Shown here: piece by piece, positions 1 through 11,775 of the stretch
Position numbering within the stretch: the stretch's first letter is position 1
How the letters are laid out: the number at the start of each line of letters is the position of its first letter
Assembly (NCBI GenBank): GCA_017462405.1
Contig: JAFTRF010000114.1
Location: 1-11,775, forward strand
From: Clostridia bacterium
GTDB taxonomy: Bacteria; Bacillota; Clostridia; Oscillospirales; Acutalibacteraceae
DNA length: 11,775 bases
Direction: 5' to 3'
Notes under the pieces: generated by a model
What the model was told of the DNA's origin: nothing
Database searches by the model: none
Seen by the model: the letters and a program-made list of their open reading frames with translations, nothing else
Translations under genes and position numbers: made by a program

Positions 1-770
1 ATGCCTATGTACCGATGAAGATCAACTGTGGCGATATGGAATTTATCGATACCCCGGCCTTGGATCTTGCGGATATGGGCGCCAAGCTGAAAAAGAGCAA
101 GGAACGCTCCGGCACCTCCTGCCCCAACGCACAGGAATGGCTGGATGCTTATGAGGGCGGCGACTGTGTATTTGCGGTCACAATCACCGGTACCCTGTCC
201 GGCAGCTACTCCGCTGCACGACAGGCGAAGGCCGATTATGAGGAAGCTCATCCCGGTGCGCGGGTACATGTCATCAATTCGTTGTCCGCCGGTCCGGAAA
301 TGGAAATGATCCTGTACAAGCTGCGGGACCTGATTGATGAGGGCAAGGATTTCGACACCATCAAGGCTGAGATCACCGAATATCAGAAGCATACCCGTCT
401 GGGCTTTGCGCTGCTGTGTATGGACAATCTGGCACGCAACGGCCGCGTCAGCAAAGCGGTCGCCAAGATCGCCGGTGTGCTGAATATCCGTGTGGTCGGC
501 AAGGCCTCCAACGAGGGTACGCTGGAGCCTCTGCACAAGGCACGCGGCGAAGCCAAGATGCAGGATGCGCTGATGACCGTGCTGGCCGACGAGGGCTATA
601 ACGGTGGCTGGGTGCTGATCCGCCATGCCGGAAATGCCGAATCGGCAGAAACGCTGCGCCGCTGCATCAAGAAAAAGTTCCCCCGTGCGCGCGTGGATAT
701 TGATACCTGTGCGGCTCTGTGTACCTACTATGCCGAAACCGGCGGTATGCTGGTCGGCTTTGAAATCTGA
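1..770 (+). CDS. DegV family protein (fatty-acid-binding, EDD fold); 5' end lies upstream of the window
   Basis: ORF 15..770. The frame stays open to position 3 with no stop. Residues TSCPNAQEWLDAYE and VTITGTLSGSYSAA..VHVINSLSAGPEM match DegV hallmarks (TSQPSP..YE; SS.LSGTY..V.VIDS.S.S.G). About 30 N-terminal residues of a typical DegV are missing, so the M at 15 is internal. Confidence 0.85.
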   Translation, partial: AYVPMKINCGDMEFIDTPALDLADMGAKLKKSKERSGTSCPNAQEWLDAYEGGDCVFAVTITGTLSGSYSAARQAKADYEEAHPGARVHVINSLSAGPEMEMILYKLRDLIDEGKDFDTIKAEITEYQKHTRLGFALLCMDNLARNGRVSKAVAKIAGVLNIRVVGKASNEGTLEPLHKARGEAKMQDALMTVLADEGYNGGWVLIRHAGNAESAETLRRCIKKKFPRARVDIDTCAALCTYYAETGGMLVGFEI

Positions 771-789
771 TTTTATTGATGTGCATATG

Positions 790-836
790 AAAACTCCCGG
801 AAAACGCACGATGGTGTGTCTTCCGGGAGTTTTTTC
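790..836. terminator. Bidirectional rho-independent terminator between convergent DegV and PHP genes
   Basis: Perfect 10-bp stem ACTCCCGGAA (793-802) / TTCCGGGAGT (821-830) with an 18-nt loop. It is flanked by an A-run on the left and TTTTTT (830-836) on the right, so a U-tract follows the hairpin on either strand. Confidence 0.8.
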
Positions 837-867
837 GTGTCGGATGGTTGATTTCCGGGATGGAAGA

Positions 868-1662
868 TCAGCGGCAGATGGGAGCCAGGTCATCTTCCTT
901 CAGCCCAAGCAGATTGGCGATGATGTCTGCATTGGGGTAGAAGTCGTGCTGCTTGTTGTCGTGGGAGTCGCTGCCGAAGGTAAACTTGCAGCCGTAGTCC
1001 TTTGCCAGCGAGAACATCCGCATGTGGCAGTCATCGGCGATCTGCTGCGGCGTCATATTTTTGGAATAGGCCACATTGATCTCAAATGCGATATTCTTTT
1101 CCGCCGTTTTGTCAAACAGGCGCTTGAAGGTATCGTCGGGGATCATTTCGATAAGGATTTTCGGGTCAAAGGGCATCAGACAGACATCGAACTGATGCGC
1201 CATGGCGGTGATGTAGCGGCTGACCTTGCTGTTTAGGATATCCTCGTAGGCCTGCACCATGAATTCGACGTGCTTGTCGTAGTTGGTGATATATTCCTTG
1301 GGCATGATCATGTGGGTGTGGGAGTTGGGGACCACGATGAAGTCAAACTTTTCGGCTTCAGCCTCGGTGATGGCGACCTCCCGGCGGGGTGTGTGGTACT
1401 CCGTCTCACAGCCGAAGTACAGCTGCAGACCAGGTTCATTGACCTTTGCCAGTTCTGCTTTCAGCTGGGCATTGTGCTCGAAGGGATGTGCGCGGTAGAA
1501 GCCACGGGCACCCGGAATATTGCCGTCACCGAAGTGGTCGCTGAAGCCGATTTTCTTCAGGCCCAGCTTTTTGGCGGTGGCAACGTAATGCTCCACCGTT
1601 GCAGAGTCCTGTCCGCAGATGGAATAATGGGTATGTACATGGAAGTCGTGGGTGATTTTCAT
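868..1662 (-). CDS. PHP-domain metal-dependent phosphoesterase (histidinol-phosphatase family)
   Basis: 264-aa ORF. N-terminal HVHTHYS plus downstream SDH..GCE..H..H..FGSDSH motifs are typical of the PHP fold. Strong RBS (GGAGGGAG) lies 8 nt upstream of the ATG at 1662. Confidence 0.8.
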   Translation of the reverse strand: MKITHDFHVHTHYSICGQDSATVEHYVATAKKLGLKKIGFSDHFGDGNIPGARGFYRAHPFEHNAQLKAELAKVNEPGLQLYFGCETEYHTPRREVAITEAEAEKFDFIVVPNSHTHMIMPKEYITNYDKHVEFMVQAYEDILNSKVSRYITAMAHQFDVCLMPFDPKILIEMIPDDTFKRLFDKTAEKNIAFEINVAYSKNMTPQQIADDCHMRMFSLAKDYGCKFTFGSDSHDNKQHDFYPNADIIANLLGLKEDDLAPICR

Positions 1663-1719
1663 AAAAGCTCCCTCCGTAGTTCGTATTTCCGGTGCCGCAG
1701 TACGCTCCGGTCTGCTTTT

Positions 1720-1748
1720 ATTATAGCAGAAAAATAAATATCCTGCAA
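1720..1748 (-). promoter_or_regulatory. Sigma-70-type promoter for the PHP gene (-35 TTGCAG, 17-bp spacer, -10 TATAAT, read on the - strand)
   Basis: Reverse complement of 1720-1748 reads TTGCAG-N17-TATAAT. It sits about 60 bp upstream of the PHP start codon. Confidence 0.6.
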
Positions 1749-1778
1749 CAGTTTTCTGCTATCCTTGCTATTTTCTGC
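1723..1778. promoter_or_regulatory. Candidate operator: perfect 11-bp inverted repeat ATAGCAGAAAA (1723-1733) / TTTTCTGCTAT (1752-1762), plus a third half-site copy TTTTCTGCGAA (1771-1781)
   Basis: Seen directly. The left arm overlaps the -10 of the PHP promoter. The third copy lies in the spacer of the WYL-operon promoter. Confidence 0.55.
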
Positions 1779-1792
1779 GAATGGTGTATAAT
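1765..1792 (+). promoter_or_regulatory. Sigma-70-type promoter for the WYL regulator operon (-35 TTGCTA, 16-bp spacer, -10 TATAAT)
   Basis: TTGCTA 1765-1770 and TATAAT 1787-1792. It is followed by RBS GGAG (1815-1818) and the ATG at 1827. Confidence 0.6.
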
Positions 1793-1826
1793 AAATAATA
1801 TATTCCAGACGAAAGGAGTGTGTACG

Positions 1827-3080
1827 ATGTCTGTCTATCGGGAGCTGATCAAAAATTTTGAAAAAATCCGTAAAATCATGCGTGAGTTTTACGTCTACGG
1901 CTTCCGCAACCGGGAGGAATACCGCGGCAAAAGTGCCCGCTCCTACGACGATGAACGCCGCCGGCTGGAAAGCTGGCTGGGCAATCATATGCGTTTCGTA
2001 CATACCCCGGAAGGAAAAAATGTATTCATCTCCATCGACAGCCGAACCGAACCGTGCAATCCCTTGTATCAGGCATGGAAGGCCAAAAGCTTTACCGACG
2101 GCGACATTACCTTGCATTTCATTTTGTTCGATATTCTGCATAATCCGTCGGTGATGCTGTCCCTGAAGGAGATCCTGACGGCGGTGGACTCTTATCTTTC
2201 TGCAACCGGCAGTGCGATGGTCTTTGACGAATCTACCGTCCGCAAAAAGCTGAAGGAGTATACCGAACTGGGGCTGATTGTGGGCGAAAAATCCGGAAAA
2301 AAGCGGATGTACCGTCGCGCCGATGCGTTTCCGGACGAACTTCCGCCCGATGTCCTGCATTATTTTTCTGAAGCCGCACCGTGCGGTGTCATCGGGTCGT
2401 TTTTGCTGGACGGCCGGCCGCCGATGGACGGTTGCTTTGGTTTCAAGCATCACTACATTACTTCTGCAATGGACAGCGAGGTGTTGGCAGACCTTTTTTC
2501 CGCCATGCAGGAAAAGCGTATTGTCACGGTGTCCAATCTGAGCCGTCGCGCCGATGAACCGAAGCGGATGCGCATCATTCCACTGCGGGTGCTTATCAGC
2601 GTGCAGAGCGGACGGCAGCATCTGATGGCGTATCACCCGGAAAACAACATGATCAAGGCCTTCCGGGTGGATTACCTGTCCGATGTCCGTCCGGAAGAAG
2701 TCTCACCGCGTTTTGATGAACTGCGGGCCGAGCTGGACTGGATGCAGACGCGGATGTGGGGTGTGACCGTCCGCGGACGTACCGGCATCCCGGCCCGGAC
2801 GGAACACGTGGAATTTACCGTACGGGTCAAGCCCGGAGAGGAGCATATCATCCAGCGGCTGGAGCGGGAAAAGCGCGTTGGCTATGTGGAGCAGCTGGAC
2901 GAGCAGACGTGGCGATTTACGGCGGATGTGTACGACAGCGGCGAGCTTCGTCCGTGGATCCGGTCGTTTCTGTGCCGCATCAGCAGCCTGCATTGCTCCA
3001 ACCGTGCGGTGGAAAATCAATTCCGCAATGATCTGGACGCAATGTACCGGATGTACGGCATCGGGGAGGAAGGGACATGA
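1827..3080 (+). CDS. Transcriptional regulator with unknown N-terminal domain, winged HTH, WYL domain and WCX-like C-terminal domain (PafB/PafC-like)
   Basis: The ORF track starts at 1692, but the first ATG with an RBS (GAAAGGAG, 8-nt spacer) is 1827, giving 417 aa. wHTH-like segment SLKEILTAVDSYL..VRKKLKEYTELGLIV. WYL-domain signature RMRIIPLRVLISVQSGRQHLMAYHPENNMIKAFRVDYLSDV. WCX-like C-terminus ..DSGELRPWIRSFLCRISSLHCSNRAVENQF. Stop overlaps the next start (ATGA at 3077-3080). Confidence 0.75.
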   Translation: MSVYRELIKNFEKIRKIMREFYVYGFRNREEYRGKSARSYDDERRRLESWLGNHMRFVHTPEGKNVFISIDSRTEPCNPLYQAWKAKSFTDGDITLHFILFDILHNPSVMLSLKEILTAVDSYLSATGSAMVFDESTVRKKLKEYTELGLIVGEKSGKKRMYRRADAFPDELPPDVLHYFSEAAPCGVIGSFLLDGRPPMDGCFGFKHHYITSAMDSEVLADLFSAMQEKRIVTVSNLSRRADEPKRMRIIPLRVLISVQSGRQHLMAYHPENNMIKAFRVDYLSDVRPEEVSPRFDELRAELDWMQTRMWGVTVRGRTGIPARTEHVEFTVRVKPGEEHIIQRLEREKRVGYVEQLDEQTWRFTADVYDSGELRPWIRSFLCRISSLHCSNRAVENQFRNDLDAMYRMYGIGEEGT

Positions 3081-3982
3081 TCTTTCATGAGATTCATTCG
3101 GTATATTACCGTACCGTGGGGAAATTACTGCGCGCCCTGCTGGTCGGCGTGTCGTCCGAAGCAGATTTACGGCGCATCATACAGGAGAATGCTTTTGAAG
3201 AAAGCATCCTGACGATTCTGCCGGCACTGAAGGAAGGCAAATGGCCATTGATGCGCCCGGACCGGACGACGCCTCTGCGGCATCCGCCGACCCAGCCGCT
3301 GACCCTGCTGGAAAAGCGTTGGCTGAAGGCCATCCTGCTTGACCCGCGTATCCAGTTGTTTGATTTATCCGTACATGGGCTGGAGGCGGTGATGCCGCTG
3401 TTCACCACGGCGGATTACTGCATCTACGACCAATACACCGACGGCGATCCGTACACGGATGCCGGGTATCAGGAGCGCTTCCGGCGGATCCTGTCTGCGG
3501 TACGGGCAAAACAGCCGCTGAAACTGGAAGTAGAGTGCCGCCGGGGCGGAACGGAATGCCTGACGGTATGTCCTGCCCGGTTGGAATACTCCGAAAAAGA
3601 CGACAAGTTCCGGTTGCGCTGCGGCGGTGCCCGGCGCAAGGTCATCAACCTGGCGCGCATTGTATCCTGTGTCCCGGCGGATCCGGAGGGGAGTTTTGCT
3701 GCACCGCTGCCGCTTGTCAAACGAAGCGTTTCGCTGAAGATCCGGAATGAACGCAATACCCCGGAGCGGGTACTGCTCCATTTTGCCCATCTGGAAAAGC
3801 AGGCCGTACGGGAAGACGACGGTCGTTATCTGGTGCATCTCCGCTATGATGCGGAGGACGAAACTGAAATGCTCATCCGTATACTGAGTTTCGGCCCGAT
3901 GGTCGAGGTTGTTGCCCCGGAACGCTTCCGGAATTTAATCATTGCACGGCTGAAAGCACAAAAAAGCTGCGGACCAATCTGA
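3077..3982 (+). CDS. Second, paralogous WYL-domain / WCX-domain regulator, translationally coupled to the first
   Basis: 301 aa. RBS GGAGG lies 7 nt upstream. WYL-like core LTVCPARLEYSEKDDKFRLRCGGARRKVINLARIVSCV. Clear WCX-type C-terminus RYLVHLRYDAEDETEMLIRILSFGPMVEVVAPERFRNLIIARLKA. N-terminus MIFHEIHSVYYRT.. resembles the MSVYRELI.. start of the first gene. Confidence 0.7.
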   Translation: MIFHEIHSVYYRTVGKLLRALLVGVSSEADLRRIIQENAFEESILTILPALKEGKWPLMRPDRTTPLRHPPTQPLTLLEKRWLKAILLDPRIQLFDLSVHGLEAVMPLFTTADYCIYDQYTDGDPYTDAGYQERFRRILSAVRAKQPLKLEVECRRGGTECLTVCPARLEYSEKDDKFRLRCGGARRKVINLARIVSCVPADPEGSFAAPLPLVKRSVSLKIRNERNTPERVLLHFAHLEKQAVREDDGRYLVHLRYDAEDETEMLIRILSFGPMVEVVAPERFRNLIIARLKAQKSCGPI

Positions 3983-3999
3983 GTTCGCAGCTTTTTTTC
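3962..3999 (+). terminator. Rho-independent terminator at the end of the WYL operon
   Basis: Stem AAGCTGCGGA (3964-3973) / TCGCAGCTT (3985-3993), followed by TTTTTTT. The stem overlaps the last codons of the second WYL gene. Confidence 0.75.
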
Positions 4000-4420
4000 C
4001 GTGATTTTTCCAGATGGATGCGATAAAATAATCCTGCAAGGTCACTTCATGTGGTGCAGTCCACCGCACCATGGTACGTCCGGCGCTGCCGCGCACGTAT
4101 GCCGAAGGATTTTTGCACTTGGAGCGGGTTCGAATCCCGCCCGTAATGCGTTGGATCGCAATTGTGCCCTGACCCGGCACACGCCGTGTAACAACGGCTC
4201 AATGATTTATGTGAATGCGGCCGCGCCGCCCCGTACGGAACTCTTGCGGTATCCGACGAGGCAGTACGGCGACAGCCTTGTCCCGGAATCTCCCCGCTGT
4301 GTGACACCGGCAGCCAGAAGTCCAGACTTCCCGCTGCCGGACGATCCTCCGGGCATTCCGGGCCGCTCCGCCGTATGTGCGTCCGCAATCCGCTATCACC
4401 CTCAAGGAGGTATATATATT
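4000..4420 (+). ncRNA. Candidate structured non-coding RNA or long 5' leader upstream of the SPFH-rtcB genes, containing a tRNA-like T-arm
   Basis: About 420 bp with locally elevated GC and no RBS-preceded ORF. GCGGG-TTCGAAT-CCCGC (4124-4140) is a canonical tRNA T-stem-loop (GGTTCGAATCC). Several further hairpins follow: GGTGC..GCACC 4053-4070, TGTGCC..GGCACA 4163-4182, GCCG..CGGC 4183-4199. Strand and exact ends are not determined. Confidence 0.35.
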
Positions 4421-5518
4421 ATGAAAAAGATCATCATCAACGAAAACCAGCGCGGTTTCCTGTTTAAAAACGGTAAGTATGTCCGGATGCTGTCTGCCGG
4501 CAAATATTATCTGTTCGGTGGCCGGGAAATCGAAATCGTATCTATGGAACAGCCCATCGGTTCTGCCCGGTGCGCCTTGAACACCCTGCTGGCTGACCCG
4601 AACATTTCCGCATCTGCGGCTGTCGTCGAAGTCGGGGATCAGCAACTGGCACTCCACTTCGTCAACGGTCAGTTTGCGGAGGTGCTCCGCCGTGGCACGT
4701 ATGCCTATTGGTACGATCCCGACCACCACGCGTTTCAGCTGGTGGATATTTCCGCCCAGGAGGTCGGTGCGGACGTTCCGGAATACATTTTCAGCAAGAT
4801 CCCGCTGTCGTGGTACACCCGGATCGAAGTGGCAGAATACCAGAAAGCGCGCCTGTACGTTAACCAGAAGTTCGTGCGTCTGCTGGATGCGGGCACGTAC
4901 TATTTCTGGAAAAACGGCGCAAAAGTAGACGTAGGCTATGTGGACACCCGTCTGACCCAGCTGAACATCACCGGTCAGGAAATCCTGACCCGCGATAAGG
5001 TTGCCTTGCGGATCAACTTCGTTTGCCGCTATCGGGTGACCGACTATATAAAAATCGCCACCGAAATCGACGACTTTGCCGAGCAGCTGCACGTCACGGC
5101 CCAGCTGGCCCTGCGGGATTATGTCGGCAAGTACAAGCTGGACGAAATTCTGGAAAACAAAGAGGAGCTTTCCCGGTTTGTCTTTGACCGGCTGAAAGCA
5201 GAGGAGCAGGCGTTGTTTGTGGAAATCGTGGATGCCGGCGTCAAGGACATCATCCTGCCCGGCGAGATCCGCGACATCATGAACACCGTCCTGATTGCTG
5301 AAAAGCGGGCGCAGGCCAACGTCATCACCCGCCGCGAGGAAGTCGCGTCTACCCGTTCGCTGCTGAACACTGCAAAGCTTATGGACGAAAACCAGACGCT
5401 GTATAAACTCAAGGAACTGGAGTACATCGAGCGCATCTGCGAAAACGTGGGCACCATCCAGCTTAACGGCAACGGAGACGTGCTGTCGCAGCTGACCGGC
5501 TTGCTCCGGAAAAGCTGA
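4421..5518 (+). CDS. SPFH / band-7 (stomatin-prohibitin-flotillin-HflK/C) domain protein, soluble, with a triplicated N-terminal motif
   Basis: RBS AAGGAGG with a 10-nt spacer and the ATG at 4421, giving 365 aa. The ORF track extends to 4001, but that N-terminal extension is not protein-like. SPFH core: KVALRINFVCRYRVTDY..LALRDYVGKYKLDEIL..FVEIVDAGVKDIILPGEIRDIM..AEKRAQANV. No hydrophobic N-terminal helix. Confidence 0.85.
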   Translation: MKKIIINENQRGFLFKNGKYVRMLSAGKYYLFGGREIEIVSMEQPIGSARCALNTLLADPNISASAAVVEVGDQQLALHFVNGQFAEVLRRGTYAYWYDPDHHAFQLVDISAQEVGADVPEYIFSKIPLSWYTRIEVAEYQKARLYVNQKFVRLLDAGTYYFWKNGAKVDVGYVDTRLTQLNITGQEILTRDKVALRINFVCRYRVTDYIKIATEIDDFAEQLHVTAQLALRDYVGKYKLDEILENKEELSRFVFDRLKAEEQALFVEIVDAGVKDIILPGEIRDIMNTVLIAEKRAQANVITRREEVASTRSLLNTAKLMDENQTLYKLKELEYIERICENVGTIQLNGNGDVLSQLTGLLRKS

Positions 5519-5567
5519 CCGCGCACCATCCGACCACATTCATTCCTTACAGAAAGGAGAAACCATC

Positions 5568-6776
5568 ATGATTGAAATTACAGGAAAATACAATTCCGCC
5601 GTGTGCTATACCGATCAGGTGGAGCCGGAAGCATACAAGCAGATACTGACGGTATGCAATGAAGAAGCCTTTCAGCACAGTAAAATCCGCATCATGCCTG
5701 ACGTTCACGCCGGAAAAGGCTGTACCATCGGCACCACGATGACCATCACCGACCGGGTCGTGCCCAACATGGTCGGGGTCGACATCGGCTGCGGCATGTA
5801 TACGGTTTGTCTCGGACAGACCGACATTGATCTCGCACAGTTTGATGCGGCTGCACACGAGATTCCCAGTGGCCGCGCGGTGTGGCAGGGACGGCAGGAG
5901 AAATTCGACCTGACGGCACTGCGCTGTTTCCGCAGCCTCAAGGATACCAAACGGCTGGAGCGCAGCCTCGGTACGCTGGGCGGTGGCAACCACTTCATTG
6001 AAATCGATGTGGACGAGGACGGCAACAAGTATCTGATCATCCACTCCGGCAGCCGGAATCTGGGGACACAAGTTGCGGAAATCTATCAAAATTTCGCCGT
6101 TGACCTCAACTGCGGCAAGGAAGTCTACTTCCAGCGCCGCGATGAAATCATCCGCACCTACAAGGCCTCCGGTCGTAAAAGTGAAATTGCCTCCGCGCTG
6201 AAGGCATTGGCCAAAAGCTTTGTGTCTCAGCCGCTGACCATGCCCAAGGAGTTGTGCTATCTGTATGGCTCGCTCATGGATGATTATCTCCACGACCTGG
6301 CCCTCTGCCAACACTTCGCCCTGCGCAACCGCGAGAAAATGGCCGAAATCCTGTTAGCAAAGACCGGACTGCAGGGCGGCGAAGCTTTCCAGACCATCCA
6401 CAATTATATTGATGTGGATGAGATGATCCTCCGCAAGGGTGCCGTGTCGGCAAAGGTGGGGGAGAAACTGCTGATTCCGATCAATATGCGTGACGGCAGC
6501 CTGCTGTGTGTCGGCAAGGGCAACCCGGACTGGAATTGCTCCGCGCCGCACGGTGCTGGACGGTTGCTGTCCCGCTCGATGGCGCGCGAACAGCTGACCA
6601 TGGCAGAATATCAGGCCGAGATGGCAGGCATTTACACGACCTGCGTTTCGGCGGGTACGCTGGACGAATCGCCCATGGCCTACAAGCGCATCGACGACAT
6701 CGTGGCACATATCGATCCCACTGCAGAGATCATTGCGCGTCTCCGACCGATTTACAACTTCAAGGCATCGGAATAA
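5568..6776 (+). CDS. rtcB: RNA-splicing ligase RtcB (3'-phosphate / 5'-OH RNA ligase)
   Basis: 402 aa. Motifs IMPDVHAGKGCTIGT, GVDIGCGM, GGGNHFIEI..IIHSGSRNLG, CSAPHGAGR and ESPMAYKRIDDI align with the E. coli RtcB active-site motifs. RBS AAAGGAG with an 8-nt spacer. The 49-bp gap after the SPFH gene has no terminator, so the two are likely co-transcribed. Confidence 0.95.
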   Translation: MIEITGKYNSAVCYTDQVEPEAYKQILTVCNEEAFQHSKIRIMPDVHAGKGCTIGTTMTITDRVVPNMVGVDIGCGMYTVCLGQTDIDLAQFDAAAHEIPSGRAVWQGRQEKFDLTALRCFRSLKDTKRLERSLGTLGGGNHFIEIDVDEDGNKYLIIHSGSRNLGTQVAEIYQNFAVDLNCGKEVYFQRRDEIIRTYKASGRKSEIASALKALAKSFVSQPLTMPKELCYLYGSLMDDYLHDLALCQHFALRNREKMAEILLAKTGLQGGEAFQTIHNYIDVDEMILRKGAVSAKVGEKLLIPINMRDGSLLCVGKGNPDWNCSAPHGAGRLLSRSMAREQLTMAEYQAEMAGIYTTCVSAGTLDESPMAYKRIDDIVAHIDPTAEIIARLRPIYNFKASE

Positions 6777-6796
6777 ATTTATACTGTAACACAGGA

Positions 6797-6838
6797 AAAG
6801 GGGTGTACTTGCAGCTTTTTGCAGTACATCCCTTTTCC
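6797..6838 (+). terminator. Rho-independent terminator after rtcB
   Basis: Stem GGGGTGTACT(t)GCA / TGCAGTACATCCC, about 12 bp with one bulge and one G·U pair. Loop TTTTT, followed by TTTTC. Confidence 0.7.
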
Positions 6839-6841
6839 CAT

Positions 6842-6870
6842 TTGCATTCCGGTGCGCTTCGTGCTATAAT
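6842..6870 (+). promoter_or_regulatory. Sigma-70 promoter with extended -10 (TTGCAT, 17-bp spacer, TGcTATAAT) for the hydrolase gene
   Basis: TTGCAT 6842-6847, TG at 6862-6863 and TATAAT 6865-6870. The start codon is 36 bp downstream. Confidence 0.65.
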
Positions 6871-6905
6871 GGAGAAAATCATTCATAAAGCGAGGTTTTG
6901 ACGCG

Positions 6906-7646
6906 ATGGCAGCAACATCAAAGAAACGCAGAAAAGGTCTGCGGATCACGCTCATTTCCATTTTGTTGGTATTCACACTGTTGACCGGCGGTGTGCTTGT
7001 AGTCATGCTGAATCCCTGTCCGGCTGATCAGTCAGCCATAGAATCCTTTTTACCGGAGGCCGCAGACGGTGTCACCGACGGCTCGTATACGGTTTTTGCA
7101 CCGGATGATCCCGTAGCCGGATTCATCTTCTATCCCGGCGCGCGGGTGGAGCACGAAGCGTACATTCCGCTGATGCAGGCGTGCGCCGCAAAGGATATTC
7201 TATGTATTCTGGTGGAAATGCCTATGGATTTCCCGTTGCTGTGGGGCAATGCCGCTGATGGGCTACAGGACAAATATCCGGAAATCGACCAATGGTACAT
7301 CGGAGGGCATTCGCTGGGCGGCTATATGGCGGCCGGTTATCTGGGCGACCACGCAGACGATTATGTTGGATTGATTTTGATGGCTTCGTATACGGAAACC
7401 GATCTGAGTGGCACCGGGCTGGATGTCCTGACCATTTACGGCAGTGAGGATAGCGTTCTGAATAAAGAACGCTACGAAAAGGGGCTGACCCTGCTGCCGG
7501 AAGGCTATACGGAAATCGTCATTGATGGCGGTTGTCATGCATATTTCGGGATGTACACCGGACAGGATGGCGGCGATTTGCCGGTGACAAACGCAGAACA
7601 GCTTCTTATGACCGCTGATGCCATCCGGACATTCGTCGAAAAATAA
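6906..7646 (+). CDS. Membrane-anchored alpha/beta-hydrolase (putative esterase/lipase)
   Basis: 246 aa. N-terminal basic stretch plus hydrophobic helix (LRITLISILLVFTLLTGGVLVV). Nucleophile elbow GGHSLGG. Downstream conserved Asp and His (GSEDSV, GGCHAY). Confidence 0.8.
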   Translation: MAATSKKRRKGLRITLISILLVFTLLTGGVLVVMLNPCPADQSAIESFLPEAADGVTDGSYTVFAPDDPVAGFIFYPGARVEHEAYIPLMQACAAKDILCILVEMPMDFPLLWGNAADGLQDKYPEIDQWYIGGHSLGGYMAAGYLGDHADDYVGLILMASYTETDLSGTGLDVLTIYGSEDSVLNKERYEKGLTLLPEGYTEIVIDGGCHAYFGMYTGQDGGDLPVTNAEQLLMTADAIRTFVEK

Positions 7647-7678
7647 TGCAAAAAACGCAAATTATTTTGCAAAAAGGG

Positions 7679-7707
7679 TTGACAAATGAATCGGGCTGTG
7701 ATATACT
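7679..7707 (+). promoter_or_regulatory. Consensus sigma-70 promoter for tRNA-Ala (TTGACA, 17-bp spacer, TGaTATACT)
   Basis: TTGACA 7679-7684. Extended -10 TG at 7699-7700 plus TATACT 7702-7707. The tRNA 5' end is about 20 nt downstream. Confidence 0.75.
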
Positions 7708-7727
7708 AACCAACGTCGAAAGGACAT

Positions 7728-7803
<76 letters not shown>

Positions 7804-7804
7804 T

Positions 7805-7843
7805 AAAACGGTAGCAATCGTAATGGGTTCTACCGTTTTTTTG
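7805..7843 (+). terminator. Rho-independent terminator after the tRNA
   Basis: Stem AACGGTAG (7807-7814) / CTACCGTT (7830-7837), followed by TTTTTTT. Confidence 0.8.
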
Positions 7844-7847
7844 TTCA

Positions 7848-7918
7848 GAAAATATTGCACGAATACGTCATGGAAATATCACATGAGCGAATATTTGTTT
7901 CATGAAAATATCGCATGA
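7848..7918 (+). repeat. Three direct copies of a roughly 15-bp motif (GAAAATATTGCACGAA, GGAAATATCACATGA, GAAAATATCGCATGA), plus an inverted partial copy; candidate integrase arm-type sites
   Basis: Copies at 7848-7863, 7872-7886 and 7904-7918. Inverted copy AAATATTCGC (reverse complement of 7887-7896). They lie 45-115 bp 3' of the tRNA end. Confidence 0.45.
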
Positions 7919-8002
7919 ACACTTTATGCAGCTTTTTCAGAACAAAAAAAGAAGTCACCGCACCTCCCTTGCAGGTCTGCCAAAACGATGCAAGAAAAAT
8001 GG

Positions 8003-8030
8003 TTGACTTCTCAAAGACCTGTGTTATAAT
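8003..8030 (+). promoter_or_regulatory. Orphan near-consensus promoter with extended -10 (TTGACT, 16-bp spacer, TGtTATAAT)
   Basis: TTGACT 8003-8008, TG at 8022-8023 and TATAAT 8025-8030. No downstream protein-coding gene on this strand. Confidence 0.7.
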
Positions 8031-8036
8031 CGAATC

Positions 8037-8272
8037 ATGATTGATTACAACACAAGTAATTTCCGGGGAGACGCATGAAGTTCCATTCTTGCAGTTTTGG
8101 TGCAAGGAGGTACAAAGCCGTCCGAAAGGTTCGCCAAAACCATTCGGGAAGCGTTTGCGTATTCTCTGTATGAGACGCACGAGAATTCCGTTCTTGCACT
8201 AGCCATGCAGAACAGAATTGTAAGCTGATCTGTCGGTCGCCAAACCTTCAGACGGTGTTCGGGCGTTTCTTT
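8037..8272 (+). ncRNA. Candidate small RNA of about 235 nt between the tRNA and the integrase gene; direction converges on the integrase
   Basis: Bounded by the promoter at 8003-8030 and a U-tract (8266-8272) after an imperfect hairpin. Internal hairpins CCGAA-GGTT..AACC-TTCGG (8109-8137) and TGCGT..ACGCA. Only 13-aa and 32-aa ORFs, each without a well-spaced RBS. Confidence 0.4.
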
Positions 8273-8395
8273 TTTTGTCTAAAAATGGACTTTTCCTGCC
8301 TGCCACAGCATGAAAAGAAACATTGTACTCTTACTATACACCCCTTTTGAATAAAAAGCAATAGTTCAACATTGATTTTTGAGATTTTGCGAAGA

Positions 8396-8520
8396 TTTTT
8401 GCGCGCAAAAAGCCCTGCTCCGTAGGCCAGAAATGCTTTCCAATACAGCAGATCCCGGAATAATAAGAGTTCCAGGAGTCGTGATGGAGGCAAATCAAGC
8501 CTTGTCGGAGCAGAGCTTTT
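8396..8520. repeat. Long inverted repeat AAAAGCCCTGCTCCG / CGGAGCAGAGCTTTT closing an 83-nt loop, adjacent to the perfect palindrome TTTTTGCGCGCAAAAA (8396-8411); probable terminator region between convergent transcripts
   Basis: Arms at 8407-8422 and 8506-8520, with 14 of 15 bases complementary. On the - strand the structure directly follows the integrase stop (8525) and is followed by a T-run. Confidence 0.5.
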
Positions 8521-8524
8521 TATT

Positions 8525-9382
8525 TTATTCAAAAACTTTGAGAAGCTGATTCTTCAGATAGTCTTGGTCAGGGTGTACATAGCGACGGGTAGTGAACGCT
8601 GGATTGGTATGTCCGAGAATCTTAGACAGGGCGGTGACTTCAATACCTTTTTCAATCGCGCGTGTAGCGAAGGTATGACGATATACATGCGTGGTCAGGT
8701 TCGGCAGATTGGCGGCTTTCCGCAGCCGAAGATAAAGCCCTTTCAGTACCTCTGTGCTGATCTGCTGGGAAGTGGAGGTCTGAAATACATATGCATTCTG
8801 AGGTATACCATCATGGTGAAGATCAGTCAGCAGCGCTACCATTCTGGAGGTCAGCGGAACACGACGGACACCGGCTTCGGTCTTGGAGGTCTGAATATTG
8901 AGCCAGCCCTGACACAGATCGACATCGCTCCATTTCAGATTCTGCAACTCAGATCTGCGAAGCCCGGTGTACAGGAAAAAAATCACAACATGACCCAACG
9001 GGTCGTTGAGGGCAGCCTTTTCAAGTCGCGCCTGTTCGTTTACAGTCAGACCATCTACATTTTTTTCACATGCGTTTCGGGGTACGGTCAATCCGTTGCT
9101 GGGGGAGGACGTAATCAGGTTGTTCTTTACCGCATAACACAAAGACGACGTAAAGATACTACGGATTTTTTGCAGTGTGGATTTGGATAAATGTGTGGAG
9201 AGCGTATTCAGGGCATCCTGCAACATTACGTGTTTGATTTCCTCGATTTCAGTTTGCATCAGGTCAGGAAAATGCTTATGCAGGGTTTTGATGAGGTGGA
9301 CATACATGGTTGTGGTGGAGGTTGTAACTTTTGGACGCATATATATATCCATCCATTGTTGCAGCCAATGCGAATAGGTCAT
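8525..9382 (-). CDS. Tyrosine site-specific recombinase / phage-type integrase
   Basis: 285 aa. N-terminal SAM-like region TYSHWLQQWMDIY..STTTMYVHLIKT. Catalytic motifs GLRRSEL, HVYRHTFAT, LGHTN and RRYVH (R..HxxR..H..Y). Confidence 0.9.
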   Translation of the reverse strand: MTYSHWLQQWMDIYMRPKVTTSTTTMYVHLIKTLHKHFPDLMQTEIEEIKHVMLQDALNTLSTHLSKSTLQKIRSIFTSSLCYAVKNNLITSSPSNGLTVPRNACEKNVDGLTVNEQARLEKAALNDPLGHVVIFFLYTGLRRSELQNLKWSDVDLCQGWLNIQTSKTEAGVRRVPLTSRMVALLTDLHHDGIPQNAYVFQTSTSQQISTEVLKGLYLRLRKAANLPNLTTHVYRHTFATRAIEKGIEVTALSKILGHTNPAFTTRRYVHPDQDYLKNQLLKVFE

Positions 9383-9590
9383 GAAAAATCCGTCCTTTCG
9401 TAAAATAGAATGGGGTTTCTTTCAGCATCTTATCAGATTTTACCAAAATAAGAGACGATTTTTTCAGTTGACGAACAACAGAGAGAAGCTCAGTAGATAA
9501 CTTTTCACTGACAATCTCAAAGTGCGCCTCACATGCGTTCAAGAAATCAAGGCCGGATTCGTTTGCGCTAATATCAGAAACAAGTTGCAT
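9276..9590 (-). CDS. Hypothetical small protein overlapping the 5' end of the integrase gene
   Basis: 104-aa ORF. Strong RBS AAGGAGGG with a 7-nt spacer. A perfect sigma-70 promoter lies upstream. The last roughly 35 codons overlap the integrase start in another frame (107 nt). That overlapping portion looks low-complexity, so the true C-terminus is uncertain. Confidence 0.4.
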   Translation of the reverse strand: MQLVSDISANESGLDFLNACEAHFEIVSEKLSTELLSVVRQLKKSSLILVKSDKMLKETPFYFTKGRIFHDLFALAATMDGYIYASKSYNLHHNHVCPPHQNPA

Positions 9591-9628
9591 GCATATTTCC
9601 CTCCTTAAAAAGAGAATATTTTACAAAA

Positions 9629-9657
9629 ATTATACCGTGTGTTTTTTGCTCTGTCAA
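9629..9657 (-). promoter_or_regulatory. Perfect consensus sigma-70 promoter (TTGACA, 17-bp spacer, TATAAT) on the - strand, driving the small ORF and integrase
   Basis: Reverse complement of 9652-9657 is TTGACA. Reverse complement of 9629-9634 is TATAAT. Spacer is 17 bp. Confidence 0.75.
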
Positions 9658-9666
9658 ACGAACGAG

Positions 9667-9741
9667 CCAGTTCTGAAGGGTAAACGCGAGGTTTCCGACA
9701 AAATTCACAGAATGTTTACGCTGCCTCCCAGTTCTGAAAGG
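9667..9741. repeat. Two direct repeats CCAGTTCTGAAGGG / CCAGTTCTGAAAGG, 61 bp apart, just upstream of the -35 of the - strand promoter
   Basis: Copies at 9667-9680 and 9728-9741, 13 of 14 identical. Candidate regulator or recombinase binding sites. Confidence 0.5.
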
Positions 9742-9770
9742 AATTTGTATTTTCAAAACTGCAAATCGCA

Positions 9771-9809
9771 AAAAAGATGTCCGAGTCACTTCAGACCCGG
9801 ACATCTTTT
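9771..9809 (-). terminator. Rho-independent terminator after the sortase gene (- strand)
   Basis: Perfect 12-bp stem 9772-9783 / 9798-9809 with a 14-nt loop. On the - strand it is followed by TTTTTTG. The sortase stop codon lies within the 3' arm. Confidence 0.8.
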
Positions 9810-10807
9810 CACTTTCCATAGAATGCTTCATACCCGTCGCGGATGGCCTCATCGGACGGTCTGGAGGCCGTGATGAAATCCAGCGCATAGTATCGGTCCG
9901 GCCAGAGGCGAACGGGATTTTTCTGGTAGGCCGATGTATCAACAGCATCCATACTTTCGTCATCCCGAAGCCGTCGGGCAATGATTACCGTCCGGTCGCC
10001 CCAGAAAAAGTAGTCGCAGGTGGACATAACGAGATAGGAATCGTCGATTCTGGGGTCATCCGGAATGTAATATGCGGACCGTATACGAGCCTGATAGATA
10101 TACGCATTGAACTGCTCCTCGTGGACAAAAGCGGTATTCGTATACGGAAACAACGTAGTTTCGTACTTGCTGGCGCGACAAACGGCGATGATTTTCCATT
10201 GACCCTCACGGTAGATGGTATCAAACGTAAACGTCGGATGCTTCTTCAGAAAGTCGAATTTCTTGAAAAGCATGAGCTGACCGAACATCAGATCGTCATA
10301 CTCCATGTTGTGTCCGTACATAACCAGTATTTGCGACTGAGGAGACAAGGCGCAGTTCCCGGCAATATACAGACTGCCGTATTTGTCGAAGCGACCGTCA
10401 GGGTCTTTCTTGAGATAATAGTCCGGGTTATCCGGAGTAAAAAACACGGGATGGTCCAGACTTGTTCCGGGTATTTTCAGCCATCCGGCGGTATCCTCGT
10501 TGCGGTTCAGCATGGGACGGAATTTATCCAGCACCTCAAGCGGTTCCATCGTCGGCGGTTTAGAACTGGTATCGGAAGAGGCAGGAGGATCTGGAGTGGG
10601 CTGCCCGTCGCCGTTGCCGGACCATCCGGAGGACGCAGCGGAAGACGAGCTGCCGTACAGGAGGTCCTTGTATTGATTGAGGGTATTCTGGTTCTGGGCC
10701 GGGGCGATCACCAACTCATAGGCCAGCACGGCACCGCTTCCAAGAAAGGACATCAGCAGAATTGCAAACAGGCTGCGGAACAATCGTTTGTGAGTTTTCT
10801 TTTTCAT
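9809..10807 (-). CDS. srtB: Class B sortase (SrtB-like transpeptidase)
   Basis: Start chosen at the ATG at 10807 (RBS GAGAGGAG), giving 332 aa. The ORF track extends to 10882 but that stretch lacks an RBS. N-terminal membrane anchor. Segments GWLKIPGTSLDHPV, ILVMYGHNM, YLVMSTCDY and RTVIIARRL align with S. aureus SrtB (GWIKLSGTSLNYPV, TILYGHHV, IMTLSTCED, RIVVVAKI). Confidence 0.9.
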   Translation of the reverse strand: MKKKTHKRLFRSLFAILLMSFLGSGAVLAYELVIAPAQNQNTLNQYKDLLYGSSSSAASSGWSGNGDGQPTPDPPASSDTSSKPPTMEPLEVLDKFRPMLNRNEDTAGWLKIPGTSLDHPVFFTPDNPDYYLKKDPDGRFDKYGSLYIAGNCALSPQSQILVMYGHNMEYDDLMFGQLMLFKKFDFLKKHPTFTFDTIYREGQWKIIAVCRASKYETTLFPYTNTAFVHEEQFNAYIYQARIRSAYYIPDDPRIDDSYLVMSTCDYFFWGDRTVIIARRLRDDESMDAVDTSAYQKNPVRLWPDRYYALDFITASRPSDEAIRDGYEAFYGK

Positions 10808-10938
10808 GCGTAATTTCTCCTCTCGATTAAAAAGAAAACCGCCCACTCCCACCAAACCAAAAAGGCAGAGTAAGCGGTTCATGTAAATTCGGTTGTTGAT
10901 TGCCTGAGAGTTCGTCAGGCCGTCGCCTTCGCCTCAGA

Positions 10939-11370
10939 TCAGAACGGCAGGTCCTCGTCGCTCAGGTCCACGTTCTCGTACTGCGGAGTCGCTCCTGCGG
11001 ATGCTCCGGTGCCGTTGACCGCCGGTGCGGACGCAGTGGCATTGCTTTTCTTCGACCCTACAGGGAAGTGGATGCTCTCGGCGATGATTTCGATGGCCTT
11101 GCGGTTTACACCGTTTTTGTCCTTGTAGGTCCGGGTCTGCAGACGACCCACAATGCCTACGCCATCACCCTTGTGGAAATACTTCGCGATGCGCTCGGCA
11201 TTGTTGCGCCACGCGACACACTCGAAAAAATCTGAATCGTATTCGCCATTTGCGTTTTTGTAGTCTCGTGCGACAGCGACAGCAAACGTCGAAACGGAAA
11301 TGCCGTTCGGGGTGGTTTTTACTTCGACGTCCTTGGTCAGACGGCCTTCGATAATAACAGTGTTCAACAT
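10939..11370 (-). CDS. ssb: Single-stranded DNA-binding protein
   Basis: 143 aa. OB-fold N-terminus (MLNTVIIEGRLTKDVEV..GISVSTFAVAV). Gly/Ala-rich linker. Acidic C-terminal tail DLSDEDLPF. RBS AAGGAG. Confidence 0.9.
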   Translation of the reverse strand: MLNTVIIEGRLTKDVEVKTTPNGISVSTFAVAVARDYKNANGEYDSDFFECVAWRNNAERIAKYFHKGDGVGIVGRLQTRTYKDKNGVNRKAIEIIAESIHFPVGSKKSNATASAPAVNGTGASAGATPQYENVDLSDEDLPF

Positions 11371-11392
11371 GATAGATTACTCCTTTTCAGAA

Positions 11393-11770
11393 TTAAATGT
11401 TTTGAGATGCGCTCATTTCCGCAATGATGCGCTCGCTGTCCCGCAAGAAGCGGACATAATTGGCCATGATCCACGCATTTTTGTGTTCGTTACACCGAAC
11501 CAAAATCTCGTAGAACTCCTCGTCCTTCAACTGTACGGTTCCCTTGACAGAAACTTTGTACGTGCCAGAAACAATGGAGGTCGTGCCGTTTGCACCTTGC
11601 TGGATTTTGCCCGTGCCGTTTTCGACGGTAATCATCCAAGGATAGGTTTTCACCTTTCCGTTGTACTGTTGCTGACGCACAATGCTGAGTTTTGTGACCT
11701 TTGCGTCGCCGCCACCGGTAGCAATGCACTTCGTTTCTGGCTCGATCGTAACATCTCGTCCGGTGGTCAT
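11393..11770 (-). CDS. Hypothetical beta-rich protein of about 125 aa, immediately upstream of ssb; no family recognised
   Basis: ORF with a 22-bp gap to ssb, so likely the same operon. The frame is open to the window edge, so the real start may lie beyond 11775. Confidence 0.5.
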   Translation of the reverse strand: MTTGRDVTIEPETKCIATGGGDAKVTKLSIVRQQQYNGKVKTYPWMITVENGTGKIQQGANGTTSIVSGTYKVSVKGTVQLKDEEFYEILVRCNEHKNAWIMANYVRFLRDSERIIAEMSASQNI

Positions 11771-11775
11771 GCCCC

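Follow-up and report, generated by a model that had tools for sequence, protein, structure and literature searches.

A structured non-coding RNA gene at the integrase end of a mobile element from Clostridia and its predicted antisense counterpart

What is made from a strong promoter when no evident gene follows it? The question arises in a metagenome-assembled contig of a Clostridia bacterium (JAFTRF010000114.1, assembly GCA_017462405.1), whose whole length, positions 1 to 11,775, we analysed and refer to as the window, and concerns a low-GC gap that has a tRNA-Ala(GGC) gene on one side and the gene of a tyrosine integrase (int) on the other. An earlier note on this DNA had described a near-consensus promoter, paired hairpin modules and a closing U-tract in this gap, and had suggested a small RNA or a small basic peptide that controls integrase expression or excision. 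Judged by its sequence, the segment 8037-8276 of the + strand is a genuine and previously uncatalogued structured non-coding RNA gene of an integrative mobile element, which we call RNA(+). A second transcription unit, RNA(-), is predicted to run against it on the other strand, and we consider it about an even chance (roughly 0.5) that both constitute an element-borne, cis-encoded sense/antisense RNA pair with mutual control.

The promoter of RNA(+), termed P(+), is of the sigma-70 type (TTGACT-16-TGtTATAAT, 8003-8030, + strand) and was found exactly as it had been described, with 11 of 12 matches in the promoter scan and a TG before the -10 box. Its boxes lie at 8003-8008 (TTGACT) and 8025-8030 (TATAAT) with a 16-nt spacer, an A-rich stretch adjoins directly upstream, and the predicted start is at ~8037. 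Equivalents of P(+) were called by the promoter scan in three related loci (L002, L016 and L036, introduced below) and are present by pattern in all six loci that we compared. The predicted transcript of ~240 nt comprises a 5' hairpin H0 (8043-8061), two similar units and a run of seven U residues (8270-8276). The modules that had attracted attention before are present as well (CGCCAAAACC..TTCGGG at 8132-8149 and CGCCAAACC..TTCGGG at 8238-8263), as is the U-tract, which appears in the DNA as T7 at 8270-8276, and the RNA does converge on the integrase gene of the - strand (8525-9382, PF00589). The terminator of RNA(+), t+, consists of the 3' strand of the closing stem P1' of unit 2 (8258-8269) and the U7 run; the simple terminator scan missed it, as the stem is formed at long range by the two strands that close a three-way junction. 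A tail of UUCGGRCGUUUC followed by six or seven U residues is common to all six loci.

The Rfam search that the earlier note had proposed as a check yielded no family for this RNA. Against Rfam 15 (4227 models, including c4, Phage_pRNA, riboswitches, ribozymes, 6S, T-box and integrase-associated motifs) no match over the locus reached the gathering threshold, and a permissive search of 7800-8560 returned chance-level matches only, with E values of at least 0.9 and scores far below threshold. The RNAs of L016, L036 and L003 were likewise without a match, and tRNA is the sole Rfam match in the window that passes.

The comparison comprises the window and five further loci, L002, L003, L016, L035 and L036. 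Homologues of the integrase led to L002 (69% identical protein), L003 (57%) and L016 (46-50%), the last of which has a shorter version of the cassette after int. A pattern scan of metagenomes added L035 and L036 as two real loci among 18 with the second pattern used; the first pattern had given no loci. Two units are present in the window, L002, L003 and L035, one unit in L016 and L036, and L003 and L035 are near-identical, with three substitutions in a block of 528 nt. The loci have a common layout, in which the 3' end of a tRNA or transfer-messenger RNA (tmRNA) gene is followed by the cassette and by a convergent short tyrosine integrase, except that L036 has an IS200-like gene instead of int. 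The window and L002 have tRNA-Ala(GGC) as flanking gene, L035 has tRNA-Pro(GGG), with the same 3' end in L003, and L036 has the 3' end of tmRNA. Since the flanking target differs among the loci, the cassette travels with the integrase and not with the host. The IS200/IS605-type transposase-like ORF (open reading frame) of L036 lies at 738-1031 on the - strand, where int would be expected, and the cassette beside the tmRNA gene is intact.

Conservation covers a block of ~7944-8520, which is wider than the interval of the earlier note (7993-8272). In alignment A1 the gap beyond int in L002 and L003 shares 82-84% DNA identity with the window over ~500 nt, and the cassette itself reaches 85-86% in comparison to 63-75% (DNA) and 57-69% (protein) for int. 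The RNA was found only with one integrase clade, at identities of at least 46%; it is absent beside integrases of ~40% identity (L004-L015, L045-L052), which have other neighbours. A blastn search of phage and plasmid collections gave no match, pattern scans of viral contigs gave nothing or chance matches, and a scan of a genome collection with the integrase gave one irrelevant relative of 28% identity. The locus L040 was considered as a further member due to its similar 3' tail and was dropped, as its promoter spacing is wrong and the model match has an E value of 0.33. In 149 kb of fetched loci, the covariance model R1, built of the unit, matches only the 10 units of these six loci.

Both units are three-way junctions of ~105 nt, each with a closing stem P1 and two hairpins, A and B. 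Unit 1 (8066-8171, + strand; R1 match of 90 bits) is closed by GGGGAGACGCA/UGCGU.AUUCUCU and carries loop A1, GUUUUGG (8094-8100), and loop B1, CGCCAA (8132-8137). Unit 2 (8172-8275, + strand; 96.6 bits) is closed by P1', GAGACGC.CGAG/UUCG.GCGUUUC, and carries loop A2, CUAGCCA (8199-8205), and loop B2, CGCCAA (8238-8243). Each of them folds alone into the junction, and the same holds for all ten units of the family. When the nine distinct units are aligned, pairing extends to 95.2% of the cells, compared to 34-52% in controls in which the alignment was slid. Double, compensatory changes occur in 13 of 28 pairs, whereas 500 shuffles gave 6.5 +/- 1.6 and never reached the observed value (0/500). 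G-U pairs are frequent in the units, one of them being invariant. Folded alone, the window gives z-scores of -2.18 (+ strand) and -2.25 (- strand), a modest advantage over shuffles that is equal on both strands, and therefore the case rests on the relatives, for which values of -4.55 and -5.53 were obtained. The body of the RNA also folds better on the + strand than on the - strand (-75 to -88 versus -59 to -67 kcal/mol, and -39 to -41 versus -25 to -26 kcal/mol), which amounts to an advantage of 7-26 kcal/mol.

Two ORFs had been reported within the RNA, and both are present in the window: one of 13 amino acids at 8037-8078 and one of 32 amino acids at 8075-8173, with a GGGGAG 4 nt ahead of the ATG of the latter. 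Across the relatives, no ORF is conserved on either strand. The ATG of the 32-amino-acid ORF is deleted in L002, its frame is shifted after seven codons in L003 and L035, and the + strand of the one-unit relatives is devoid of ORFs; in L016 there is no ORF of at least 20 amino acids on either strand. Single-base indels are scattered along the whole of alignment A1. The locus thus appears to encode no peptide, and the small basic peptide of the earlier note has to be given up. The small RNA proposed beside it is borne out as a non-coding + strand gene that extends from promoter to terminator and contains two hairpin modules, backed by conservation, covariation and strand asymmetry.

The hairpin loops fall into two classes. 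The A loops are variable in 11 of 15 columns compared to 34 of 229 elsewhere (Fisher p = 2e-6), and the B loops read CGCCAA in every two-unit locus. All three substitutions that separate L003 from L035 lie in the 7-nt loop A2. Positive selection on this loop was considered and not retained: three changes in 7 nt have a probability of 0.08 at an int synonymous divergence (dS) of 0.144, and the divergence between L003 and L035 is patchy, which makes either baseline of divergence uncertain. For most A loops, a 7-nt complement occurs within the own locus only directly opposite the loop, on the other strand. Loop A1 of the window is, in addition, perfectly complementary to CCAAAAC of loop B1 (8134-8140) within unit 1, a match kept in no relative, so that a conserved kissing contact between A and B loops was rejected. 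A likeness to anticodon loops, with U as the second and frequently a purine as the sixth nucleotide, was noticed in the A loops but is inconsistent. A motif of the form YGCCA(A/C)A recurs in the loops of four + strand hairpins (7975-7990, 8132-8140, 8238-8245 and 8300-8307), two of which lie outside RNA(+), namely in the t- hairpin and in hairpin H3 described below; read on the antisense strand, it is UUGGCR. This recurrent motif could be a putative protein-binding site.

Just past t+, every locus has a single candidate for a promoter facing RNA(+), always with a spacer of exactly 17 nt. In the window this promoter, P(-), reads TTGCTT-17-TATAGT (8333-8361, - strand; predicted start ~8326), and the pattern is present in 6/6 loci, with TTGACT-17-TAAAAT and a TG in L016 and L036. 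The promoter scan calls P(-) in L002 (9/12 matches) as well as in L016 and L036 (10/12 with TG), and in the gaps of these three loci it reports exactly two promoter-like sites each, which are convergent. At the other end lies t-, a predicted intrinsic terminator of RNA(-) at 7944-8012 on the - strand, with a hairpin and six or seven U residues in all six loci. Its outer stem GAGAAGUCAACC/GGUGACUUC encloses an inner hairpin CUUGCA..UGCAAG, the U7 run occupies 7950-7944, and the 5' arm corresponds to the complementary strand of the P(+) -35 region. The arms differ between the two subfamilies yet stay complementary, with compensatory changes in L016 and L036. In models of free RNA(-), t- has a pairing probability of 0.91-0.99 in five of six loci, the window model alone being different, and it also forms in the bound model. 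P(-) and t- keep their positions in both subfamilies although the surrounding sequence cannot be aligned between them.

From P(-) and t- an antisense RNA(-) of ~380 nt is predicted, which would extend from ~8326 to 7944 and span all of RNA(+) and P(+). The earlier note had not recognised this predicted transcript, which would be the sole perfect partner of RNA(+). The marks of a cis-encoded antisense arrangement, convergent promoters with overlapping transcripts and a terminator of its own for each of them, are predicted from the sequence in 6/6 loci. The strand preference of folding is consistent with this layout: the segment spanning P(+) is 7-15 kcal/mol more stable on the - strand than on the + strand in the two-unit loci, so that structure resides on opposite strands in the body and in the promoter-proximal segment, as would be predicted from two convergent and separately terminated transcripts. 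Two further hairpins belong to the - strand. Hx (8017-8056, CCTGTGTTATAATC..GATTACAACACAAG) is an inverted repeat round the -10 box and the start of P(+), which forms a hairpin of 14-15 bp in the minus-strand fold of the window; all other loci have an equivalent, whose sequence differs in L016 and L036. In the Rfam search, this region gave a weak hairpin match below threshold (- strand, 7946-8060). Hx is either a hairpin that is possible only in RNA(-) or an operator. H3 (8290-8317, - strand, CUUUUC.UGC/GCA.GAAAAG), read from alignment A1, lies between t+ and the start of RNA(-) and would be the 5' stem-loop of this predicted RNA. By eye, the alignment contains compensatory versions of H3 in L002 and L003, and its + strand loop, YGCCAMA, resembles the B loops.

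Taken as a sense/antisense pair, the locus would work as follows. P(+) would drive the ~240-nt RNA(+) with its 5' hairpin and two junction units, the last closing stem and U7 run terminating transcription, and P(-), located beyond t+, would drive the ~380-nt RNA(-) back across the gene and P(+) to a strong hairpin and U7 run overlapping the -35 box. An abundant, tightly folded RNA(+) would meet RNA(-) via the hairpin loops, a long duplex would follow, and each RNA would thereby set the level of the other; convergent transcription may add interference between P(+) and P(-). Plasmids, conjugative elements and phages possess antisense control and immunity cassettes that follow this logic. What the loci show directly is a set of conserved promoters and terminators for either strand, a covarying fold, the strand asymmetry and the lack of a conserved ORF; we infer from them the synthesis of both RNAs, their pairing and their regulation of the element, with expression and pairing as predictions of the model.

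Several points speak against the pair. P(-) is weak in the window and in L003/L035, with 8/12 matches and a -35 box of TTGCTT, and the scan of the window does not call it and reports a different, non-conserved site instead. In the integrated state, t- is followed only by repeats and the 3' end of the tRNA or tmRNA, hence by no gene and no visible regulated output. Classical attenuation is removed as a mode of action because t- looks constitutive: countertranscript attenuation of the pIP501, pT181 or pCF10 type was rejected, since t- forms in models of free as well as bound RNA(-) and no gene lies downstream in the integrated state. The closing stems, the three-way junctions and the invariant CGCCAA of the B loops, which recurs in four hairpins, are not explained by a simple antisense pair. 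Besides, the family is small, with six loci of which two are nearly identical, and the covariation leans largely on the comparison of paralogous units.

The main rival is a stand-alone RNA(+) that binds a protein or acts in trans, as a scaffold or decoy via the CGCCAA loops and the 3' U-tail or by pairing with host mRNAs, in which case the antisense promoter would be incidental or would tune the level. We regard this as a possible, though rather doubtful, explanation. It gains from a fold that is far more elaborate and conserved than perfect antisense pairing needs, from B loops that stay invariant next to variable A loops, from the loop motif YGCCAMA in hairpins outside RNA(+) and from the weakness of P(-) in two-unit loci. 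It does not account for the conserved positions of P(-) and t- in both subfamilies despite unalignable surroundings; moreover, no preferred target of the RNA was found in the element, the int start region being average, full-length complements of most A loops are found only on the antisense strand, and no protein partner can be named. A more speculative idea, which we put forward as rather unlikely, is the following: RNA(+) might be a modular scaffold whose hypervariable A loops serve as an identity tag recognising the own antisense partner or kin, whose invariant CGCCAA loops dock a common protein, and which provides RNA-based immunity or incompatibility among related tRNA-integrating elements. 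If this were true, duplication of the unit would add a second specificity and explain the one-unit and two-unit forms, and it would also explain why the sole changes in 528 nt between L003 and L035 hit one 7-nt loop. A minor rival is a function of the DNA itself, with hairpins of single-stranded DNA as a single-strand origin, single-strand promoter or transfer origin, or else with the region as the accessory arm of the attachment site. The element encodes SSB, L002 encodes RepL and DpnD/PcfM-like proteins, folding is strand-specific, the attachment site and direct repeats adjoin the region, and a hairpin arm contains the -35 box in all loci and the -10 box in the two-unit loci. We nevertheless consider it unlikely in view of correctly spaced, canonical linear promoters that precede each structured part by ~7 nt, U-runs directly after the closing stems on both strands of all loci and the many invariant or frequent G-U pairs; in L016 and L036, the -10 box lies in a loop and not in a stem, which speaks against a conserved duplex single-strand promoter.

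Three further explanations concern int and coding capacity. Control of integrase expression or excision had been suggested by the earlier note, and it would be exerted by the RNA or its read-through as antisense to int mRNA or by pairing with the int leader; it agrees with an RNA that is adjacent to int and convergent with it, that occurs only in one integrase clade of at least 46% identity and that is lacking beside integrase relatives of ~40% identity. However, t+, the opposing and conserved promoter and a bidirectional int terminator stand between RNA and int. This terminator (8412-8516) is a hairpin GCCCTGCTCCG..CGGAGCAGAGC with T-runs on both strands, located in columns 700-820 of alignment A1, and its arms are retained, with some changes, in L002 and L003. 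Complementarity to the int start region is not enriched, this region being a mid-ranked duplex partner of the RNA among all windows of the element, and L036 keeps the cassette beside an IS200-like gene. We found no support for a direct link between RNA and integrase, and control of int by convergent transcription or pairing appears quite improbable. An effect of the RNA on excision is conceivable. A guide RNA for the recombinase, comparable to bridge or seek RNAs, would use the variable loops of its modules to specify target and donor DNA for an integrase without arm-binding region. Two similar modules with variable loops do lie beside such a gene, and its close relatives use three targets, tRNA-Ala, tRNA-Pro and tmRNA. 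In contrast, no RNA has a target-specific match of at least 8 nt to its own attachment region in either sense, the window and L002 share tRNA-Ala and differ in both A loops, L003 and L035 share tRNA-Pro and differ in A2, two members have one module only, and a literature search turned up no RNA-guided tyrosine recombinase; this makes a guide function very improbable. Least of all do we expect a small-protein gene, be it the basic 32-amino-acid ORF or a type I toxin with antisense RNA. Overlapping, convergent RNAs are a usual mark of type I toxin-antitoxin systems on mobile elements, and the ORF with its GGGGAG is there in the window, but it is lost or broken in the relatives as described above, the alignment is full of single-base indels, the peptide is basic and not hydrophobic, and a type I system was rejected for want of a conserved ORF on either strand.

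The sense/antisense pair, which we favour, can be compared with known systems on the basis of its sequence. The closest are the antisense cassettes of plasmids and conjugative elements (ColE1 RNA I/RNA II, R1 CopA/CopT, pIP501 RNAIII, pT181 RNAI, and pCF10 Anti-Q/Qs with the convergent promoters PQ/PX), in which a short, strongly transcribed multi-hairpin RNA (strong transcription being a prediction here) finds its full complement in a longer transcript that starts at a convergent promoter. The hairpin loops of 6-8 nt and the carriage by a mobile element are shared as well, and the loops drift while the stems persist, which is to be expected of two partners encoded by one stretch of DNA. Unlike these cassettes, our locus has no rep or tra gene after the opposing transcript, whose terminator looks constitutive, and it combines tandem closed three-way junctions and terminators that overlap the opposing promoters with a position at the int and attachment-site end of an integrative element. 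Phage RNAs such as P1/P7 c4, P4 CI, P22 sar and lambda OOP are likewise small, terminated and structured and come from temperate or integrative elements. In P1 and P7, specificity differences between close relatives are confined to the recognition loops. The targets of these phage RNAs are defined mRNAs (ant/icd, cII), whereas no such mRNA target was identified here; there is also no sequence or structure match to these RNAs in Rfam, and they are without duplicated three-way junctions. Lambda sib, too, is a structured RNA element past the 3' end of int and beside the attachment site. It is part of the int transcript and a site for RNase III, whereas the structure described here is on the strand opposite int and has its own promoter, int having its own terminator.

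With type I toxin-antitoxin pairs (txpA/RatA and bsrG/SR4 of B. subtilis), the locus has in common small transcripts of a mobile element that converge, overlap and have a promoter and a terminator each; in contrast to them, no ORF is conserved on either strand and the overlap is complete instead of being limited to the 3' ends. Single-strand promoters and origins (Frpo of the F plasmid; the ssoA type of rolling-circle plasmids and ICEBs1) are similar as strand-specific, hairpinned non-coding regions with promoter hexamers in hairpin arms on an element encoding SSB, but our locus has ordinary double-strand promoters and U-run terminators on both strands, and the pairing of the -10 box is not conserved. 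The bridge and seek RNAs of IS110/IS1111 (PMC11208158; review PMC13604230) are structured non-coding RNAs with two similar variable-loop modules, located at the element end beside the recombinase. The recombinase here, however, is a tyrosine integrase (PF00589, phrog_1) and not a DEDD/IS110 enzyme, and the variable parts are terminal hairpin loops that match neither target nor element end and differ between elements with the same target.

Regarding the setting, the tRNA-Ala(GGC) gene at 7728-7803 (+ strand; ARAGORN; Rfam tRNA with 61.4 bits) is the integration target and borders the element. It follows host-type genes on the + strand (DegV, WYL, WCX, SPFH, RtcB and a hydrolase), and the - strand of the window carries the integrase gene, a sortase-like gene and SSB. 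On the host side, at 1692-6776 (+ strand), proteins with WYL and WCX domains, an SPFH/Band 7 protein and the RNA ligase RtcB are clustered; this cluster looks like an RNA-repair or stress module and is unrelated to the RNA, because it is absent beside the cassette of L002. Between the tRNA terminator and the cassette lie direct repeats GRAAATATYRCAYGA in three copies (7848-7928, + strand), obtained in a repeat search of the window and L003 as families D1 and D2. Inverted T7GTTC / GAACA7 tails (7836-7852 and 7934-7950) flank these repeats; the copy number differs among the loci, with more than three copies in L003 (4810-4931), and the repeat region is the most variable part between L003 and the near-identical L035. 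These repeats may be accessory recombination sites. Neither the window nor L002 yielded a second copy of the attachment site, which would mark the opposite end of the element, and this far end was recovered in none of the loci. The element of L002 (4910-5488 and 11-1611) encodes RepL, DpnD/PcfM-like, DUF3990 and DUF3791 proteins, a gene content that suggests a plasmid-like integrative and mobilisable element.

The integrase itself has 285 amino acids (8525-9382, - strand), covers positions 164-444 of the 611-position profile phrog_1 and is identical to an NCBI protein named 'MAG: site-specific integrase [Clostridia bacterium]'. It is without the usual N-terminal arm-binding region, yet its close relatives target tRNA-Ala, tRNA-Pro and tmRNA. 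In the window, the loop of the int terminator contains an insertion of ~74 nt (8423-8505; columns 721-794 of alignment A1), which is absent from L002 and L003. Upstream of int, an ORF of 104 amino acids (9276-9590, - strand) shares ~107 nt with the int start in a different frame, and small ORFs occupy the corresponding place in L002 (81 amino acids) and L003 (90 amino acids), ending ~100 nt before int. Neither the 104-amino-acid ORF nor these counterparts have a match in Pfam or PHROGs; the former might be a candidate recombination directionality factor.

A literature search gave no description of this arrangement. Our data add an uncatalogued family of structured RNAs with a clear, covariation-backed fold, located in the gap of a few hundred bases between int and tRNA or tmRNA, in which RNA genes of this kind seldom receive an annotation. 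Its architecture is unusual in several respects: closed junction units are single or duplicated, a terminator is formed from the closing stem of a junction, the predicted antisense terminator overlaps the sense promoter, and one class of loops is frozen and the other free to vary. If it has no role in regulation, the locus would still illustrate, in compact and natural form, how convergent promoters can be combined with interlocked terminators. If, on the other hand, the pair controls the activity of the element or its discrimination against relatives, it would represent an RNA-only control module for integrative elements of Clostridia.

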